From Elusimicrobiota bacterium (lineage in GTDB: Bacteria; Elusimicrobiota; Elusimicrobia; UBA1565), in contig JBDREN010000013.1 in NCBI GenBank assembly GCA_043819795.1, positions 1 through 49,322 on the forward strand: a DNA stretch of 49,322 nt. The letters run 5' to 3'. Below, one piece after another: positions 1 through 49,322 of this stretch; position 1 is the first letter of the stretch, and the number at the start of each line of letters is the position of its first letter. The position numbers and the translations under genes are program-made. The notes beneath the pieces are model-generated. The model was not told where the DNA came from. It did not search any database and saw nothing but the letters and a program-made list of their open reading frames with translations.

Positions 1-663
1 GCAGTCCGCGGCGAGCCGCTCCGTCGGGTTGTCGCCGATCGTATTGCTTTCCGGGTGATACGCGCTGATCGTCACATAGGGGTTGTAGAACACGTTGTCC
101 GCGATCTCGTTGTTGACGGCATAGGCCAGCGCCACGCCCACATACGGGAAATAGATGTGGTTTGAGACGATGGAATTGTGCATGCTCGCCTCGCTGTACG
201 CGCTCACCTGGATCCCGTACGTCGCATACACTGTGTTCCGCGCGAACGCGCCGTAGTGGATGTTATCGTTCAGATAGATGCCGCGGTCCGAGGCATGGAT
301 GGTGTTGTCCACGATCTCCAGGTTGCGGATGCCGCCGGCGTAGCCGCTGCCCCAGATGCCGTTCTCGAATCCGCTGATGGCGCAGTTCTTCACCTGCATC
401 CCGCTCGCGAATTTCAGCAAAGTCACGCCGTTGCTCGTCCCGCTCCCGGCGATCGCGTGCCCCGCGCAGTCGAGGGATACGTCGTTCGTTCCGAGGGTGA
501 ATCCGCCCGCGCAGAACTGATAGTCCCTGGTCAAGGTCGTGGACGCCGTCAAGGTGATGGGCTGCTCGCAGGCGGCCGCGTCCGTCGCGGCTCCGGCCAG
601 CAAGAAGGCCGCGCAGGCGGCGGCGGTCGTGCAATTTAAATTGAAAGGTTTCGGGTTTCTCAT
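1..663 (-). CDS. Secreted right-handed parallel beta-helix (pectin-lyase/NosD-like) protein, runs off the left edge
   Basis: Not in the ORF track. Manual translation from ATG 663 gives MRNPKPFNLNCTTAAACAAFLLAGAATDAAACEQPITLT...VSLDCAGHAIAG...VKNCAISGFENGIW...IVDNTIHASDRGIYL..., open to base 1. Signal-peptide-like N-terminus, N-x-I/G-I-x-L beta-helix periodicity, GGAG RBS upstream. Confidence 0.8.
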   Translation of the reverse strand, partial: MRNPKPFNLNCTTAAACAAFLLAGAATDAAACEQPITLTASTTLTRDYQFCAGGFTLGTNDVSLDCAGHAIAGSGTSNGVTLLKFASGMQVKNCAISGFENGIWGSGYAGGIRNLEIVDNTIHASDRGIYLNDNIHYGAFARNTVYATYGIQVSAYSEASMHNSIVSNHIYFPYVGVALAYAVNNEIADNVFYNPYVTISAYHPESNTIGDNPTERLAADC

Positions 664-1107
664 GGGACCCCTCCGGACTGCTCGATCTGGGACGTCTTTA
701 CTAAGTGTAGACCCCGCCCGCCCCCCTGTCAAGCGATAGCCCGATGCCGGCTCCGTCAACGGCGATGTGACTTTAGTCACACCCGGGATCCGGCCTCGGC
801 CCGACGGACCCGGGAAGCATGCCGCCCCCCCCCAGCCATGATTGGGGGTGATGGGAACCGGGTCGGCGGCCCAGGTCCGGACCGGCGGGGTTTGTCGGAG
901 GCCCGCCCTGGCTTGCAGCGGGCCGAGACCAAAGCGGCTCCCTCCGGGCGACCGCGTCCCCGCCGTCCGGTGCCTGGGGCAGGACCCGCCGACCTCTCAA
1001 AAACGCTTACCGTAGGTTTTGGCGCGTCCCCGATGGATAGGCGCTGGCCCTGCGACGGCATTCCCCCTCTGGCGCGCCGGGCGCCGAGCGGCTATCATTA
1101 ATGGACG

Positions 1108-2862
1108 ATGACTGCGAATACCCGGCCGAAGGTCCTCCTGAGCTCCGCCTACGGGCCCTACGCGCTCGGGGCGGGCGAGAGCATGCACGACATGTTCGCC
1201 TCCCGGCTCTCCCGGGGGCAGGGCGTCTTCTCGATGAGCTCGCACTGCCATTACTTCGGGCTGCACCTGATCGCCGAGAACATCGACTGCCCGGCCACCG
1301 TGCTCGAGGACCCGCACCTCGACGAGTTCGAGGCCGAGCTCGCCGAGGGCTACGACTATGTCGCTTTCCAGCTCAAGAGCATCCACACCGAGCGCGTCGC
1401 GCGGATGATCCGGCTGACCCGCGTCAGGTCCCCCCGCTCGAAGATCGTCGTGGGCGGCTACGGCGTGGGAACGCTCGAAGACGGGGTCCCCGGGGACGCG
1501 GGCGGCAGCGCCGGATATATCCTCGAAAACGCGCACCACTTCTGCCGGGAGGACGGGGTGCGGTTCATACGCCGGCTCCTGGGCGACGGAGCGCAGGACA
1601 GGCCCATCACCCAGGACCACCTGCCTTTCGCCGGGTTCTCGCTGCGCGGCTTCTCGAGGCGCTATTTCCGCGTGCCCACGATCCTGGTGTCTTTGGGGTG
1701 CCCGTACGGATGCGACTTCTGCAATACGAGCGCGTCCTTCCGGCGCAAGAAGACGCGGATCGCCGAGCCCGGCGAGGTCCACGCGCTTATGAAGCGCCAC
1801 GCCCGGCGACTGCGCACCGGGACGTTCATGACGCTGCTCTTCGACGAGGACCTCTTCCAGGACCCGGAGTACGTCCGCGAGCTCGGCCGCCTCATCCGCG
1901 CGGACCGCTCCGGCTGGGGCTTCAAATGGTTCTCGTTCGGGAGCGTCCGGTCGCTCTCCCGCTTCGATCCCGAGGAGCTGCGCGACTGCGGCTGTTTCGC
2001 CGTCTGGATCGGCGTGGAGTCCGCCCTGTGCGCCGACCGCGAGCGCGCCGGGGACCAGTTCCTGGGCAAGCGGGTCGGGGACATCGAGCGGATCTTCCGG
2101 GGACTGCACGCCAACGGCATCGCGACCGTGGCGTCCATGGCGGTGGGCTTCGACTTCCACGACCGCGAGACCGTCGAACGGGACCTGGACTTCCTGCTCC
2201 GGCTCGAGCCGACCTTCTACCAGGTCGCCCCCCTGGTCCCGTGTCCCGGGACGGAGCTCTATCGCCGGCTCAAAGGAGAGGGCCGCCTTCACGACGGCTA
2301 CCGCTGGGAGGACTTCCACCTCTGGGGCAAGGCCATGTTCCGCCCCAAAAGCCTCGCGCGCGAGGAAGTGTCCGAATTCGTGGCCCTCGCCCATGAGCGG
2401 CTGACCCAAGAACTCGGCCCCCCCTTCCTGCGCCTGATGGAAAACTACCTCAGCGCCTACGAACGGCTCGCCGGGAGCGAGGACGACTTCCACCGGCGGC
2501 TGCGCGGCTTCTTCAAGGCGATCGCCAAGTACGACCGCTGCACCCTGCGGCCCATCATGAAGCTCGGGGCTTCAAAGGCGGTACGGGAGCGGGCGGCCGA
2601 GCTCGAGCGCCGCTGCCTCGAGATCCTGGGCGAGGGATCGCTTTGGGATCGATTCCTCGCCGCGACGGCCGACTGGTGCCTGAGCCGCGCCGCGCGGAAG
2701 GCCGGGCCGAACGGGAAGCCCGCGTCGCCCGCCTGCGATCCCCCGGCGAGATGGACGTATTACCACAGCCGGCCCGGCTCGGACGCGGTCTACGTGCGCA
2801 AAGGGCACGGCCCGGGCAGGGCCAAGAAGCGCCCGAGCAAGTTTCTCGGCCCCCTCGGTTAG
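1108..2862 (+). CDS. Radical SAM protein with N-terminal cobalamin-binding-like domain
   Basis: CxxxCxxC motif GCPYGCDFC; KIVVGG, IGVES and P-x-PGT motifs typical of B12-radical SAM proteins. Confidence 0.85.
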   Translation: MTANTRPKVLLSSAYGPYALGAGESMHDMFASRLSRGQGVFSMSSHCHYFGLHLIAENIDCPATVLEDPHLDEFEAELAEGYDYVAFQLKSIHTERVARMIRLTRVRSPRSKIVVGGYGVGTLEDGVPGDAGGSAGYILENAHHFCREDGVRFIRRLLGDGAQDRPITQDHLPFAGFSLRGFSRRYFRVPTILVSLGCPYGCDFCNTSASFRRKKTRIAEPGEVHALMKRHARRLRTGTFMTLLFDEDLFQDPEYVRELGRLIRADRSGWGFKWFSFGSVRSLSRFDPEELRDCGCFAVWIGVESALCADRERAGDQFLGKRVGDIERIFRGLHANGIATVASMAVGFDFHDRETVERDLDFLLRLEPTFYQVAPLVPCPGTELYRRLKGEGRLHDGYRWEDFHLWGKAMFRPKSLAREEVSEFVALAHERLTQELGPPFLRLMENYLSAYERLAGSEDDFHRRLRGFFKAIAKYDRCTLRPIMKLGASKAVRERAAELERRCLEILGEGSLWDRFLAATADWCLSRAARKAGPNGKPASPACDPPARWTYYHSRPGSDAVYVRKGHGPGRAKKRPSKFLGPLG

Positions 2863-2866
2863 CTCC

Positions 2867-3059
2867 GAGAACCGGTACCCGGTACCCGTTTTGAGAACCG
2901 GTACCCGGTACCCGTTTTGCGTCCGCCGGACAGTTACTCAAAGAACGACTGGCCGGTACCTGGTACCGGTTTCCCAGGACGGTCGTTTTATTGAGTAACC
3001 CGACAAGTTACTCAAAGAAACCGGCAATCGGTGCCTGGTACCTTGGGGGAGTTACTCAA
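2867..3059. repeat. REP-like palindromic repeat cluster
   Basis: Exact 26-bp tandem duplication GAGAACCGGTACCCGGTACCCGTTTT (2867-2892, 2893-2918). Four GGTRCCYGGTACC motifs. GTTACTCAA four times (2933, 3007, 3051, inverted at 2991-2999). Confidence 0.8.
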
Positions 3060-3081
3060 TATTGGGGCGGGCTGGGGCCTC

Positions 3082-3110
3082 TTGACAACCTATCCGAGGC
3101 CGCTTACTAT
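3082..3110 (+). promoter_or_regulatory. sigma70-type promoter
   Basis: TTGACA (3082-3087), 17 nt, TACTAT (3105-3110). Confidence 0.75.
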
Positions 3111-3154
3111 TGATGCAGGACGCGCGCCGGACGGCGACAAGGAGGTGACGATCC

Positions 3155-3304
3155 GTGCCCAAGAAGAAGGCGAAAGGCGACAAGAGCGGCATCCCCGCGA
3201 ACATCTTCCAGCCCCGGGACGGCTTCGAGCAAACCATGCGGCAGAGGCTGGCGACCGAGCCGCCGAAAAAGGCCCAGAAGCGCAAGAAGGTCAAGAAGAG
3301 GTAG
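3155..3304 (+). CDS. Small Lys/Arg-rich protein, 49 aa (MPKKKAKGDKSGIPANIFQPRDGFEQTMRQRLATEPPKKAQKRKKVKKR)
   Basis: GTG start behind a strong SD (AAGGAGGTGA) and the consensus promoter; GC-rich third codon positions; below the ORF-track size cutoff. Confidence 0.75.
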   Translation: MPKKKAKGDKSGIPANIFQPRDGFEQTMRQRLATEPPKKAQKRKKVKKR

Positions 3305-45727: not shown

Positions 45728-45785
45728 ACCCAACCGCCGGCGCTCGGCCGAGCACATTGCGCGTCGGCTGGAGCGGTTGTCGGAC
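45728..45785 (-). repeat. attC site, 58 bp
   Basis: Minus strand GTCCGAC-AACC-GCTCCAGCCGA...TCGGCCGAGC..GTTGGGT (GTTRRRY intact). Confidence 0.75.
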
Positions 45786-45832: not shown

Positions 45833-48070
45833 CTAATATCTGAGAAATGTCTTCCCCTTGAAATCCCCCTGGATGGTCGGAAGCTGCTCCACGCCGTGCA
45901 TCCTTCTTGCGTAATATGGGACTCCTTCCGCTTCGTCTGAGATGTATCTGTAAATTTCATCGAAAGTCAGGCGATCGTCCTTGTCCGCGTCGGCATTCTT
46001 ATCATGGATGGCTTTGAGGAAAAAGTACGTGAACATCCCGTGGCGCTGGTCCTTGTTCCAGCTCGATACCTGGCTGCCTTTGGAGCTCGAGATGACGACT
46101 CCGTTGGTTAAGCCGCTCTTCGGGGCCGAGATCTGCATGACCAGCGGCGAGATGTTTTCAAAGATCGTGGCGCCCGAGAAGCAGGAATCAAGCACGACAG
46201 TCATGGATCGGGCGGAGATCATTCCGAGATTCTCGTAGAAGGTATCCAGGGGGTAGCCGCCGAGTTCGATATAATGAGGGTCGGCTTCGACGGGAACGAA
46301 GTAGCCCTTTTTGTCATTGAGCCCGGGGGCGCCGTGGCCGGAGTAGAATACGAAGACGTCCGATCTGCCCGGCTTTACCGCGTTGAAGAGCTTGCCCTTG
46401 TGGTTCCCCTCGATCCCGAAGTAGAGTTCAAAGTCGCCTTTGGCGGCGTTCTCGATGTGGAAGATGTTGCCTTCCCTAAAGCCCATCGCGCTTGTAAGGT
46501 ATCGTTTGACCGACCTTGAGTCGTTGAGGGCAAAATCGACGCTCTTGGCGTTCCGGTAGTCCCGATTCCCAATCACGACCGCGATCGCGTCGCGGTTGAT
46601 TGTCTTGGTCTGCGGGATATCTCTATCCACGCTCACTGACGATTGGGGGGCCGTGGTCTCGCTGCCGGCAGGCTCGCGGCTCTCCGGTTCGCCCGCGAGG
46701 ACATTTCGCACAAGCGTTAGGATGTCTTCGGGGCGGACATGCCGCCGTTTCTTGTTCCCCCGGAGAGCTTTCAAGGCCGTCGGCACGAGCGAGTCGTGTT
46801 CCTCCGTGCGCTTGAGGGGGATGTCCGGGATGAGACCGTCGTCTGGAAGCCTGCCGTTAAGCAATACCGCCCGATAGGTCGAGAGCTTCATCGCGGACCC
46901 ATCCGGCAGATCATATACGGTCTGGGTTGTGGCCTTCCCGAAGGTGCGCTCGCCGAGGAGCACCGCGCGTCCATGAGCGCGAAGTGACCCGGCTAGGATT
47001 TCCGCGCCGGCGGCGGTGCCCGTGTTGAGCAATATGATGATCGGGCAGCCCGTATGGGTGCCGAACTTCTTGGCGGTATAGGTGACGTCGTTCGCGCTGA
47101 CTCTCGTCTTCATGGACGCGATGAGGCCTTCCTCGATGAATTTATCCGCGATTTCGATCGTGCTGTTCAATAGCCCGCCAGGATTGTTCCGCAGGTCCAG
47201 CACTAGTCCCTTCAGCTCCGCTCTCCGGGAACCCAGCTTCATCAGCGCTCTCTCCACTTCGCGCGGGGTGGTCTCCTGGAATTGAGAGATGCGGATGTAG
47301 CCGATGCCCCCCTCATGGGACTCGTGTTTTACGCTCTCGATCTTGATCGTGTCCCGCGTCAGGGTGAAGTCCTTGGACGCTTCGAAACCGTCCCGCATGA
47401 TCGCCAGAGTGACCGATGTTCCCTTGAGTCCCCTGAGCCTCATAACGCACTCCTCGAGAGTCAGGCCTTTCGTCGGCTCGCCGTCGATTCTGAGGATGCG
47501 GTCACCCGCTGCCAGGCCGGCCTTGAATGCGGGCGTATCGTCGATGGGCGTCGTGACGGTAAGCACTTTGTTCTTTAGGGATATCTGGATTCCGAGGCCG
47601 CCGAATTCCCCGCGAGTCTCGACACGGAAGGCCTCGAGCATTTTTTTGCGCATCAACGACGAATGGGGGTCCAGCGCGCCGAGCATCCCTTCGATCGCGG
47701 CATATTCGATCTCGAGCGAGGGGAGACCGGAGCGCTTCTCGATCTTCTCAAAGGCCTTGGAGAATGAATCTAGAGCCGTTTCCATATTCGCGTTCTTTGG
47801 GATGTCCGGGCTTTGTGCCTCGTGAGGCGAATCCATAGACTCAAGGTACTCGTCTATCCCGAGCATGGCCGAGGAGAGCAGATAGTACGGCGTCGGCTCG
47901 TCAACGTAATTCTCCAGGACCAAGGAGAAGGACTTTTTGAACACCTCCAAAGATTCGGGCTTCTTCGCTTTCGATCCGGCCGCCGCGGTGGGAACGTCTC
48001 CGCTGAGCAGCGACATGAAGGTGAGAATCGAGGATAAGAGAAGAGGTTTCGTCCTTGGCATATGGGGCAT
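45833..48070 (-). CDS. PDZ/S41 (CtpA-like) domain fused to a C-terminal caspase-like (peptidase C14) domain
   Basis: LDPHSS, GEFGGLGI, LDLRNNPGG, TFGK; then VIGNRDY, YSGHG, LDSCFSG, HGMFTYF. Signal-peptide-like N-terminus; start 48070 or 48061. Confidence 0.9.
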   Translation of the reverse strand: MPHMPRTKPLLLSSILTFMSLLSGDVPTAAAGSKAKKPESLEVFKKSFSLVLENYVDEPTPYYLLSSAMLGIDEYLESMDSPHEAQSPDIPKNANMETALDSFSKAFEKIEKRSGLPSLEIEYAAIEGMLGALDPHSSLMRKKMLEAFRVETRGEFGGLGIQISLKNKVLTVTTPIDDTPAFKAGLAAGDRILRIDGEPTKGLTLEECVMRLRGLKGTSVTLAIMRDGFEASKDFTLTRDTIKIESVKHESHEGGIGYIRISQFQETTPREVERALMKLGSRRAELKGLVLDLRNNPGGLLNSTIEIADKFIEEGLIASMKTRVSANDVTYTAKKFGTHTGCPIIILLNTGTAAGAEILAGSLRAHGRAVLLGERTFGKATTQTVYDLPDGSAMKLSTYRAVLLNGRLPDDGLIPDIPLKRTEEHDSLVPTALKALRGNKKRRHVRPEDILTLVRNVLAGEPESREPAGSETTAPQSSVSVDRDIPQTKTINRDAIAVVIGNRDYRNAKSVDFALNDSRSVKRYLTSAMGFREGNIFHIENAAKGDFELYFGIEGNHKGKLFNAVKPGRSDVFVFYSGHGAPGLNDKKGYFVPVEADPHYIELGGYPLDTFYENLGMISARSMTVVLDSCFSGATIFENISPLVMQISAPKSGLTNGVVISSSKGSQVSSWNKDQRHGMFTYFFLKAIHDKNADADKDDRLTFDEIYRYISDEAEGVPYYARRMHGVEQLPTIQGDFKGKTFLRY

Positions 48071-48232
48071 AGTACTACAAAGAGGATATACGATATTTCC
48101 CCGTGCCGCAATGCGAGTAAATAAGCGCTTGCCACGCACGGTCGGTGGGGCTGAGTCAGCCCCGTGGACCGCGACCGCCGACTATTTGGGGTGATGCGCC
48201 TCCCGGGAAAAGCGTAGAAATCGCAGGCTAAC

Positions 48233-48337
48233 GAAGCGGCAGGGAAACCCCCAAGATTCTCAAATACCCCGCCACATTCGTTCTTCGCGCGAATATAACC
48301 ACGGATTTGCCATCCACAGAGGTCTTTCTACAGCTTC
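48233..48337. mobile_element. 105-bp MITE with IS1182-type ends inserted in an attC core, AAC duplicated
   Basis: AAC(48230-32) GAAGCGGCAGGGAAACC...GGTCTTTCTACAGCTTC AAC(48338-40); ends match the IS end at 49019-49035 at 13/17 and 16/17. Confidence 0.8.
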
Positions 48338-48421
48338 AACGGTTGCCGCTCAGCCGCCTCGCGCTACTGCCGGCCCGCCTTCCGGAACGGAAGCGCGCGT
48401 CGGCTCAAGCGCTTGTTAGGC
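48338..48421 (-). repeat. attC site of the TA cassette (best preserved)
   Basis: Minus strand GCCTAAC-AAGC-GCTTGAGCCG...CGGCTGAGC-GGCAACC-GTT; the cassette starts GTTAGGCGC (49018-49010), complementary to GCGCCTAAC. Confidence 0.9.
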
Positions 48422-48427
48422 GCTCCA

Positions 48428-48688
48428 CTATCTGTAGATCTCTCCACGATGGCCCAAGTCAATTACCACAACGACGAGTTCTTTCCGACGGACCTCATAA
48501 ATGATTCGATAGCTCCCTAGTCGGTACGAAAGCATGCCCCGGAGTTCGCCATGCAGGGGTTTGCCTTGATCCGGGTCCTTTGAGATGGCCGCGAAGGCAC
48601 TTAGAAAGCGCTGATAAAGTCTGCGATCCGCGCGGCATACCCGTTCAAGATCCCTCGCAGCCTGACGGCTAAGCCGGACGCTATACAC
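48428..48688 (-). CDS. RelE/ParE family toxin
   Basis: GKPLHGELRG..SYRLGSYRIIY..VIDLGHR.EIY. Confidence 0.92.
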   Translation of the reverse strand: MYSVRLSRQAARDLERVCRADRRLYQRFLSAFAAISKDPDQGKPLHGELRGMLSYRLGSYRIIYEVRRKELVVVVIDLGHRGEIYR

Positions 48689-48953
48689 TCTCTAGCCGAC
48701 GACGAAGCGCGTCAAGAGAGATGGTCTTCCCGGCGCGGGCCTCTCTGCGGGACTTCCGAATACGTCTAACGGATGCCTTGTCAGAGAGTATCTCGATCGT
48801 CTCAAGTAGACCCTCGTAGTCCTCAGGACTGATGAGCATCATTACGGGCTCGCCGCGGCGAGTGACGATGTACCGGTCTAGCCTGGATTCAATCGCGTTT
48901 GCCACCTTGGGTAGCCCGGGGCGAAGGGCTTTCAGCGTAATGGTTCGGGTCAT
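48681..48953 (-). CDS. Phd/YefM family antitoxin
   Basis: YIVTRRGEPVMMLISPEDYEGLLETIEIL; overlaps the toxin start. Confidence 0.92.
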   Translation of the reverse strand: MTRTITLKALRPGLPKVANAIESRLDRYIVTRRGEPVMMLISPEDYEGLLETIEILSDKASVRRIRKSRREARAGKTISLDALRRRLESV

Positions 48954-48968
48954 TGTTCCCTCCCACCT

Positions 48969-48999
48969 AAAGTATACACGACAGAGTATACTTTCGCAA
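48969..48999 (-). promoter_or_regulatory. TA promoter with overlapping operator palindrome
   Basis: Minus strand TTGCGA, 17 nt, TATACT; inverted repeat AAAGTATAC-N8-GTATACTTT (48969-48994). Confidence 0.8.
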
Positions 49000-49018
49000 G
49001 ACCACAGATGCGCCTAAC

Positions 49019-49322
49019 GAAGCTGTAGAAAAACCTGTTTAGTTGCCGGTCAGAGCCTGTGATGTATGGCGTCTAGGTGTCGATCGCGAGGCTCTTATTC
49101 AAGTCTAACTGGAACTGCTCTGCGCTGCAATGCATTTGGTCCGGGTGTTTTTCGTTATTGGCGTCGTTTAATCGGGTTTTCCTTATGGTCCGGCGTATCC
49201 ATAGCGATAGGCCTTGTGGATATTGTGGACAAGGGCGAAGAGATGCCATTGGATGTTGACCTTGGTCTTGCCTCGTAGCGTGAAGCGGTCAAGGTGGAGC
49301 ATGTGGCGTATGTTCGCGAACA
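49019..49322 (-). mobile_element. 3' end of an IS1182-family insertion sequence
   Basis: Terminal repeat GAAGCTGTAGAAAAACC begins right after GCCTAAC; transposase C-terminus further in. Confidence 0.85.
49183..49322 (-). CDS. IS1182-family DDE transposase, C-terminal fragment
   Basis: Manual translation FANIRHMLHLDRFTLRGKTKVNIQWHLFALVHNIHKAYRYGYAGP* matches the EPVF..RF.LRG..KV..W.L...HN pattern; not in the ORF track. Confidence 0.85.
   Translation of the reverse strand, partial: FANIRHMLHLDRFTLRGKTKVNIQWHLFALVHNIHKAYRYGYAGP

Follow-up and report, generated by a model that had tools for sequence, protein, structure and literature searches.

The IS and the MITE in the DNA studied here are read as members of one IS1182-family clade that occupies the R' GTT of attC sites with the triplet duplicated. 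The DDE transposase of this clade likely recognises the attC hairpin together with C-GTT-R, and its cut across the GTT is likely staggered by 3 bases. From comparison of the sequences, we put the probability of this reading at about 0.82. The feature itself is real and general: an IS1182-family element behaves like the attC-targeting elements of unrelated families. The window, the whole stretch of DNA that was analysed, is contig C13 in full (JBDREN010000013.1, 49,322 nt) from the Elusimicrobiota bacterium assembly GCA_043819795.1.

The minus strand is the cassette top strand in the window. Read in that direction, the transposase end is followed by 164 non-coding bases to the right inverted repeat (49019), then by GTTAGGC and the Phd-ParE cassette. 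After the Phd-ParE genes come the attC (48421 to 48338), the 105-bp MITE and GTTAGCC, and then an S41/C14 peptidase gene. The IS and the MITE are thus each in contact with the GTT of a cassette junction. The coordinates given in the first-pass annotation for the IS end, the MITE and the transposase C-terminus all agree with the sequence. The features are:

49183..49322, minus strand: IS1182-family transposase, C-terminal 45 codons and stop; the contig ends within the gene.
49102..49130, minus strand: predicted outward promoter within the IS right end, TTGCAG-17-TAGACT, its position kept in the subclade.
49019..49035, minus strand: right terminal inverted repeat of the IS1182 element, with GAAGCTGTAGAAAAACC at 49019.
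49012..49018, minus strand: GTTAGGC, the cassette start, its GTT immediately after the IS right end.
48971..48999, minus strand: the cassette's own promoter-like site, TTGCGA-17-TATACT (consensus match only).
48681..48953, minus strand: Phd/YefM antitoxin gene of the cassette (PF02604).
48428..48688, minus strand: ParE/RelE-type toxin gene of the cassette (PF05016), its stop codon 6 bases ahead of R''.
48338..48421, minus strand: attC of the toxin-antitoxin cassette, with R'' GCCTAAC at 48421-48415, L arms, and the R' GTT at 48340-48338 as the upstream copy of the duplication.
48233..48337, minus strand: 105-bp MITE with IS1182-clade ends, from a 99-106-bp family; the 5' end GAAGCTGTAGAAAGACC is intact and the 3' end degenerate.
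48226..48232, minus strand: GTTAGCC, the downstream copy of the duplicated GTT plus RRRY, which begins the next cassette-like unit (S41/C14 peptidase).

On the forward strand the two junctions read GCCTAAC (49012-49018) and GGCTAAC (48226-48232), and AAC stands on both sides of the MITE, at 48230-48232 and 48338-48340. The far end of the IS is unassembled, because the window is the entire contig. A sequence search of the assembly gave no matching IS left end or N-terminal part of the window copy, and four public runs gave small pieces only, none of which crosses the contig end. The left end of the IS is predicted to read attC-GTT-GAAGCTGTAG, possibly joining contig C133. A search of the window against Rfam gave no match.

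Positions 49183-49320 (minus) match PF13751 above the cut-off, and the 45-aa fragment matches NF033551 (IS1182) with an E value of 1.7e-8, which bears out the earlier assignment to the IS1182 family. A relative in the same genome, without its N-terminus, scores 267.8 bits against NF033551 (cut-off 270) and is 87% identical over the window fragment; full-length relatives carry the NCBI name IS1182 family transposase. The relatives are 1760-1871 bp long (n=64), with terminal inverted repeats around one long ORF, of which the window holds the right end only. Residues D142, D309 and E473 are invariant in 115 relative proteins, and in the window copy these positions fall past the contig end. We take them to be the catalytic DDE residues, a putative role assigned from IS4/IS5-type motifs. 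A structure model of the transposase (pLDDT 47.9, from 7 sequences) is too poor for use, and the search by sequence for a solved structural relative gave none, the best E value being 0.18. Some IS1182 members prefer palindromic targets.

The query used for finding relatives was a transposase relic on contig C17 of the same genome, 83% identical in DNA to the window over 126 bases. The relic (C17:9818-11394) has lost the first 45 codons and both ends of the element; the sequence after its stop codon resembles an IS21-type end.

The attC that the first-pass annotation had placed beneath the MITE is confirmed by a sister site: the body at 48338-48421 is identical in 76 of 84 bases to an empty attC on contig C133, in an array adjoining an integron integrase (TIGR02249, E 5e-134). 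By our own rule set, which is not the IntegronFinder model, the window site has RYYYAAC just past the stop codon, paired L arms and GTTRRRY, and an integrase is present in the genome. Its bottom strand folds at a z of -1.1, with an alternative fold at the R' end, as against -4.6 for the empty sister; the window attC is slightly decayed.

On C133 (positions 1-3240) the integrase gene, at 1852-3240 (minus), is co-directional with the cassettes; there are three attC sites, and an attI-like GTTAGGC lies shortly past the integrase stop. The start of the contig lies within an attC of the same family as the window's, and the contig may join the window via the IS; this start is compatible with such a join, short of demonstrating it. 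In the window, the last intact junction is directly followed by the gene for a 768-aa protein (45833-48139, minus) with PDZ, peptidase S41 and caspase-like C14 domains. Four intergenic palindromes on the minus strand, at 45750, 45098, 41754 and 39748, have an attC L-arm core (CGGCTGAGCG or CGGCCGAGCG) with eroded R boxes, and none of them carries an element. The stretch of genes between about 39.5 and 48.1 kb resembles a decayed cassette array.

The MITE in the window is non-coding, 105 bp long, shares its ends with the IS1182 element and is flanked by the duplicated GTT. The earlier claim that it has the same ends as the IS stands as far as the ends are related and AAC is duplicated; the match is imperfect, and the end at 48233 is degenerate compared with 11 family members from other genomes. 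The family was found through an end pattern and not by DNA similarity: when 301 genomes of the phylum were searched with the MITE's DNA sequence, only the two copies of this genome matched, and the end pattern gave 12 more MITEs in 10 other genomes. All 14 complete MITEs (99-158 bp, 11 genomes, the window and C219 copies included) lie between two GTT triplets, and 12 of the 14 have upstream a sequence that passes attC rule 1, described below; the exceptions are the C219 copy and L122. Thirteen aligned MITEs are all co-oriented, with a mean column identity of 71%. An inverted orientation of the MITE relative to the IS, on which the end profiles are ambiguous, was rejected on this 13/13 alignment. 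The cognate transposase would mobilise the MITEs in trans, as their shared ends and shared target suggest.

The second MITE copy of this genome (C219:36113-36212) is 77% identical to the first and has the same duplication with no attC upstream; it is an off-target insertion. Genes for HTH-XRE regulators adjoin it, and a 5-base deletion lies in its 3' end. In both MITEs of this genome the 3' end is damaged, and they may be immobile. Records 3 and 4 of run X2, compared with window positions 48228-48418, hold a related MITE and attC with 25 differences in 191 bases and other cassette flanks; a second MITE variant is also present in them.

The insertion point was compared across loci from genome contigs (8), related genomes, metagenomes (the best 80 of 502 hits), viral contigs (1) and plasmids (3). 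Duplicates and non-transposase loci were dropped (L001, L003, L011, L012, L014-L016, L018, L022, L023), as were loci without ends (L002, L019, L046) and distant IS1182 members (L021, L024), leaving 93. Element ends were located by a repeat motif that contains no flank letters. In these transposase-selected loci, which include the best 80 of 502 metagenome hits, GTT is present at the left flank in 83 of the 85 ends found and at the right flank in 74 of 78; where both ends were found (n=71), 69 elements have GTT on both sides, one has AAC and one TTT, so that a 3-bp direct repeat is present in 71/71. The insertions are mostly at the R' end of attC-like hairpins, in line with what the first-pass annotation expected of homologs. 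On the cassette top strand, the triplet that is struck is the R' GTT. The right end of L100 was called wrongly and left out of the count, and GTT is likewise present at its true end. Among the named hosts are Elusimicrobiota, Dehalococcoidia, Pseudoalteromonas and Catenovulum, and the habit extends across transposases down to about 40% protein identity. Because the loci are related and the metagenome loci are the best 80 of 502, these counts are not of independent events and overstate independence. More clade ends or MITEs are present at other GTT junctions in loci L030, L044, L049, L060, L071 and L079.

The few deviating flanks are informative. L090 is flanked by TTT on either side and lies at an attC whose own triplet is TTT. 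AAC flanks L027 (Catenovulum) on either side and follows the right end of L108, which is the same triplet with the element inverted. The triplet is therefore a duplication of the target and not part of the element, and the orientation of the element is usual, not absolute: most members are co-oriented with the cassettes and two distant members are inverted.

These copies bear on a model in which the transposase only excises a circle with a GTT end junction and the integron integrase inserts this circle at attC in the manner of a cassette. The insertion point is the integrase crossover, GTT and the bases that open the element together look like a core site, and right-end-GTT-left-end junctions exist in stacked arrays (L086, L147), all as the model would have it. 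However, in L090, a single case, the target's own triplet is copied with no G supplied by the element; L027 and L108 have AAC on the transposase strand; and the C219 copy has its duplication without attC. The TTT/TTT, inverted and off-target copies therefore argue against integrase-mediated entry, which we consider very improbable. The end-GTT-end stacking of elements at one site is also expected if recognition is of the upstream attC with its GTT.

A flank-blind search with a 17-letter end pattern matched 24 of 101 genomes of the order, and the reversed pattern gave 1 match. GTT or AAC stands just outside 39 of 40 distinct ends from outside this genome, some of which belong to the transposase-selected elements. 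In genome G052, the same right end is present at four different junctions, with 130 of 130 bases identical in three of them and 124 in the fourth. One right end at four unlike junctions shows separate, recent insertions. It also largely refutes the possibility that a small number of old insertions was multiplied by passive copying together with attC sites or cassette starts, in which case these would not be separate events. The related MITE and attC with other cassette flanks in run X2, and the damaged 3' ends of both MITEs in this genome, would fit such copying. Against it, the upstream attC sites vary widely in sequence and length, the range of transposases sharing the habit is broad, and the sister attC sites on C133 are empty. 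We give passive copying almost no credence.

Canonical IS1182 elements behave differently. Eleven from plasmids, about 25-29% identical to the clade, served as controls, and none (0/11) has GTT on both sides. The left flank of one, L112, ends in GTT at a script-cut boundary; its right flank does not begin with GTT. Repeats were readable by eye in 7/11: GACC (twice), CGGA, CAGC, GGTC, GGCC and ATCAGT. ISPa7, ISPa22 and ISPpu20 are 27-29% identical to the clade and, where readable, have 4-6-base repeats of other sequence. In a FastTree tree of 98 proteins, the 88 ingroup sequences, picked by similarity, group together on a branch that is long (0.86) and modestly supported (0.75); 11 short or broken loci were left out.

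Is the target an attC? Three rule-based tests of our own, not the IntegronFinder covariance model, were applied; the attC rules pass 9-16% of controls. With the best 80 of 502 metagenome hits included, rule 1 passes 40/70 upstream flanks, compared with 30/350 shuffles and 29/322 other GTT positions in the same loci, and rule 2 passes 43/71, compared with 35/213 and 31/239 controls. The strict form of rule 1 passes 13/70 flanks, 5/350 shuffles and 3/322 other GTT positions. One rule or the other is passed by 50 of the 71 flanks and 21 fail both; by eye, many of these 21 look like degenerate or long attC sites and several (among them L055, L075, L083 and L104) are without any. In the stem test, at least 9 of 10 pairs ending 4-11 bases before the GTT are present in 48/68 flanks, in 21/108 CGTT controls and in 9/68 shuffles; for 10 of 10 pairs the counts are 24/68, 2/108 and 0/68. 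The downstream flank is an exact GTTRRRY in 35/71 and has at most one mismatch in 60/71. Targeting of attC is strong, imperfect and not exclusive, and purging of insertions elsewhere could inflate the attC share. The earlier suggestion, that two insertions at one nucleotide mark a specialised element, holds in that homologs share the GTT; exclusivity does not hold, as the C219 MITE and some homolog sites lack an attC. In one locus (L004:367-545), the sequence just upstream of an attC remnant preceding the IS resembles a group II intron 3' end, suggesting two parasites in one site.

The flanks also carry a short consensus, with C at -4 in 76/82 and a purine at +4 in 67/71 around the GTT (the best 80 of 502 metagenome hits included). 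The transposase might prefer only C-GTT-R-G, the attC excess arising because harmless sites in arrays survive and other insertions are purged. The strength of this consensus, the C219 copy, which retains the motif and the duplication off target, and the flanks that fail both attC rules are in keeping with such a preference. However, this genome has 12,456 CGTTR sites and 2,975 CGTTRG sites against a handful of attC sites, and many of them would be harmless intergenic positions; the short motif alone therefore does not explain the attC enrichment. Moreover, the near-identical, recent copies in G052 are all at AAC/GTT junctions, and stems at a set distance from the GTT are far commoner than at control CGTT sites. 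We regard a short-motif preference alone as unlikely.

A guide RNA was also considered. The non-coding regions of the elements (n=64) match their own and other targets over 5.95 and 5.98 bases for the 3' region, and over 5.70 and 5.46 bases for the 5' region, in what is a crude test. Since these regions match their own targets no better, a seekRNA-type guide is argued against, and this candidate was rejected at that sensitivity. From the lack of a guide match, the odd copies that speak against integrase entry and the excessive frequency of CGTTR, we infer protein-based recognition of the attC stem with C-GTT-R.

In the mechanism we favour, the transposase itself would choose the site, with neither guide RNA nor integrase. 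It may read the L-arm stem that ends 4-11 bases before the GTT, as a cruciform or as a folded strand, comparable to the hairpin targeting of IS1272. Since a GTT stands at each side of the element, the attC upstream of it could still be used. Without interrupting any gene, the element would form the 5' part of the next cassette and could travel with it.

A predicted outward promoter would drive the downstream cassette in the window's subclade. Among the 13 right ends aligned from this subclade, 10 retain a TTG-type and a TAGACT-type box with a spacing of 17 bases, some 80 bases in from the end; conservation of the surrounding region is 53%. The predicted window promoter TTGCAG-17-TAGACT (49130-49102) is absent from the list of a generic scanner. 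A clade-wide outward promoter was rejected, as only 15/79 ends score at least 8, compared with 4.6% of shuffles, and these are mostly of the window's subclade; the prediction is kept for the subclade only. A downstream ORF was counted in 37/43, a count made without a control and given no weight.

Known systems resemble the clade in part. In the accounts available (PMC4923244, PMC5678879), IS1272/TnSha1 of staphylococci insert into hairpin stems such as terminators, without a sequence consensus, and IS1272 deletes part of the target with no duplication. The clade has the same transposase family (NF033551, PF13751, PF05598), terminal inverted repeats and the family lean to palindromes or hairpins. 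Unlike IS1272 as described there, it duplicates 3 bases (71/71) at a fixed GTT, makes no deletion and lands just outside the stem. The IS1111-attC group (ISKpn4, ISPst6, ISPa25) likewise consists of insertion sequences at a fixed attC position; according to PMC11187229, these use a DEDD transposase and are guided by a seekRNA pairing with the target, whereas the clade enzyme is IS1182/IS5-like, its target is duplicated and no match of a guide to its own target is seen.

Group IIC-attC introns, as presented in PMC3001079, are a monophyletic attC-specialised lineage with outward promoters for the following cassette; they are retroelements that lie in the bottom strand, in the orientation opposite to that of the cassettes, and split a gene from its attC. 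In contrast to these introns, the clade is DNA-based, mostly co-oriented and placed after the attC body. According to PMC3575428, integron-linked MITEs and IMU lie at the borders of class 1 integrons and mobilise them as a whole. The clade MITEs are similarly non-autonomous and integron-associated, but lie inside arrays at the crossover triplet.

The first-pass annotation knew of no IS1182 element described at attC, and our search of titles and abstracts likewise found none; its scope lay outside ISfinder, TnPedia and subscription papers, so a prior record is possible. For attC targeting, the available text of two recent integron surveys (PMC12444791, PMC11089894) cites only IS1111 papers, and that of a preprint (10.1101/2021.07.26.453812) has both terms with no link between them.

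We think it somewhat more probable than an even chance that a widespread, undescribed DDE clade reads the folded attC and inserts at the crossover triplet as a pseudo-cassette, which keeps the site working, rides with the next cassette, stacks and, in one subclade, carries an outward promoter. If true, attC parasitism would have a third independent route, and the clade would be a DDE targeting system that is protein-only, guided by structure and directed at a single position. DDE insertion sequences rarely strike one fixed position in a structured site. The clade would then offer a tractable model for target choice that is guided by structure and needs no RNA guide, and might serve as a tool for site-specific insertion. 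Callers of attC that require an intact R' RRRY may mis-call occupied sites, and the conserved ends could mark cassette arrays in uncultured bacteria. The finding bears on the invasion, assembly break-up and re-expression of cassette arrays, in which about 1.8 kb or 100 bp, and maybe a promoter, would be added at the crossover.
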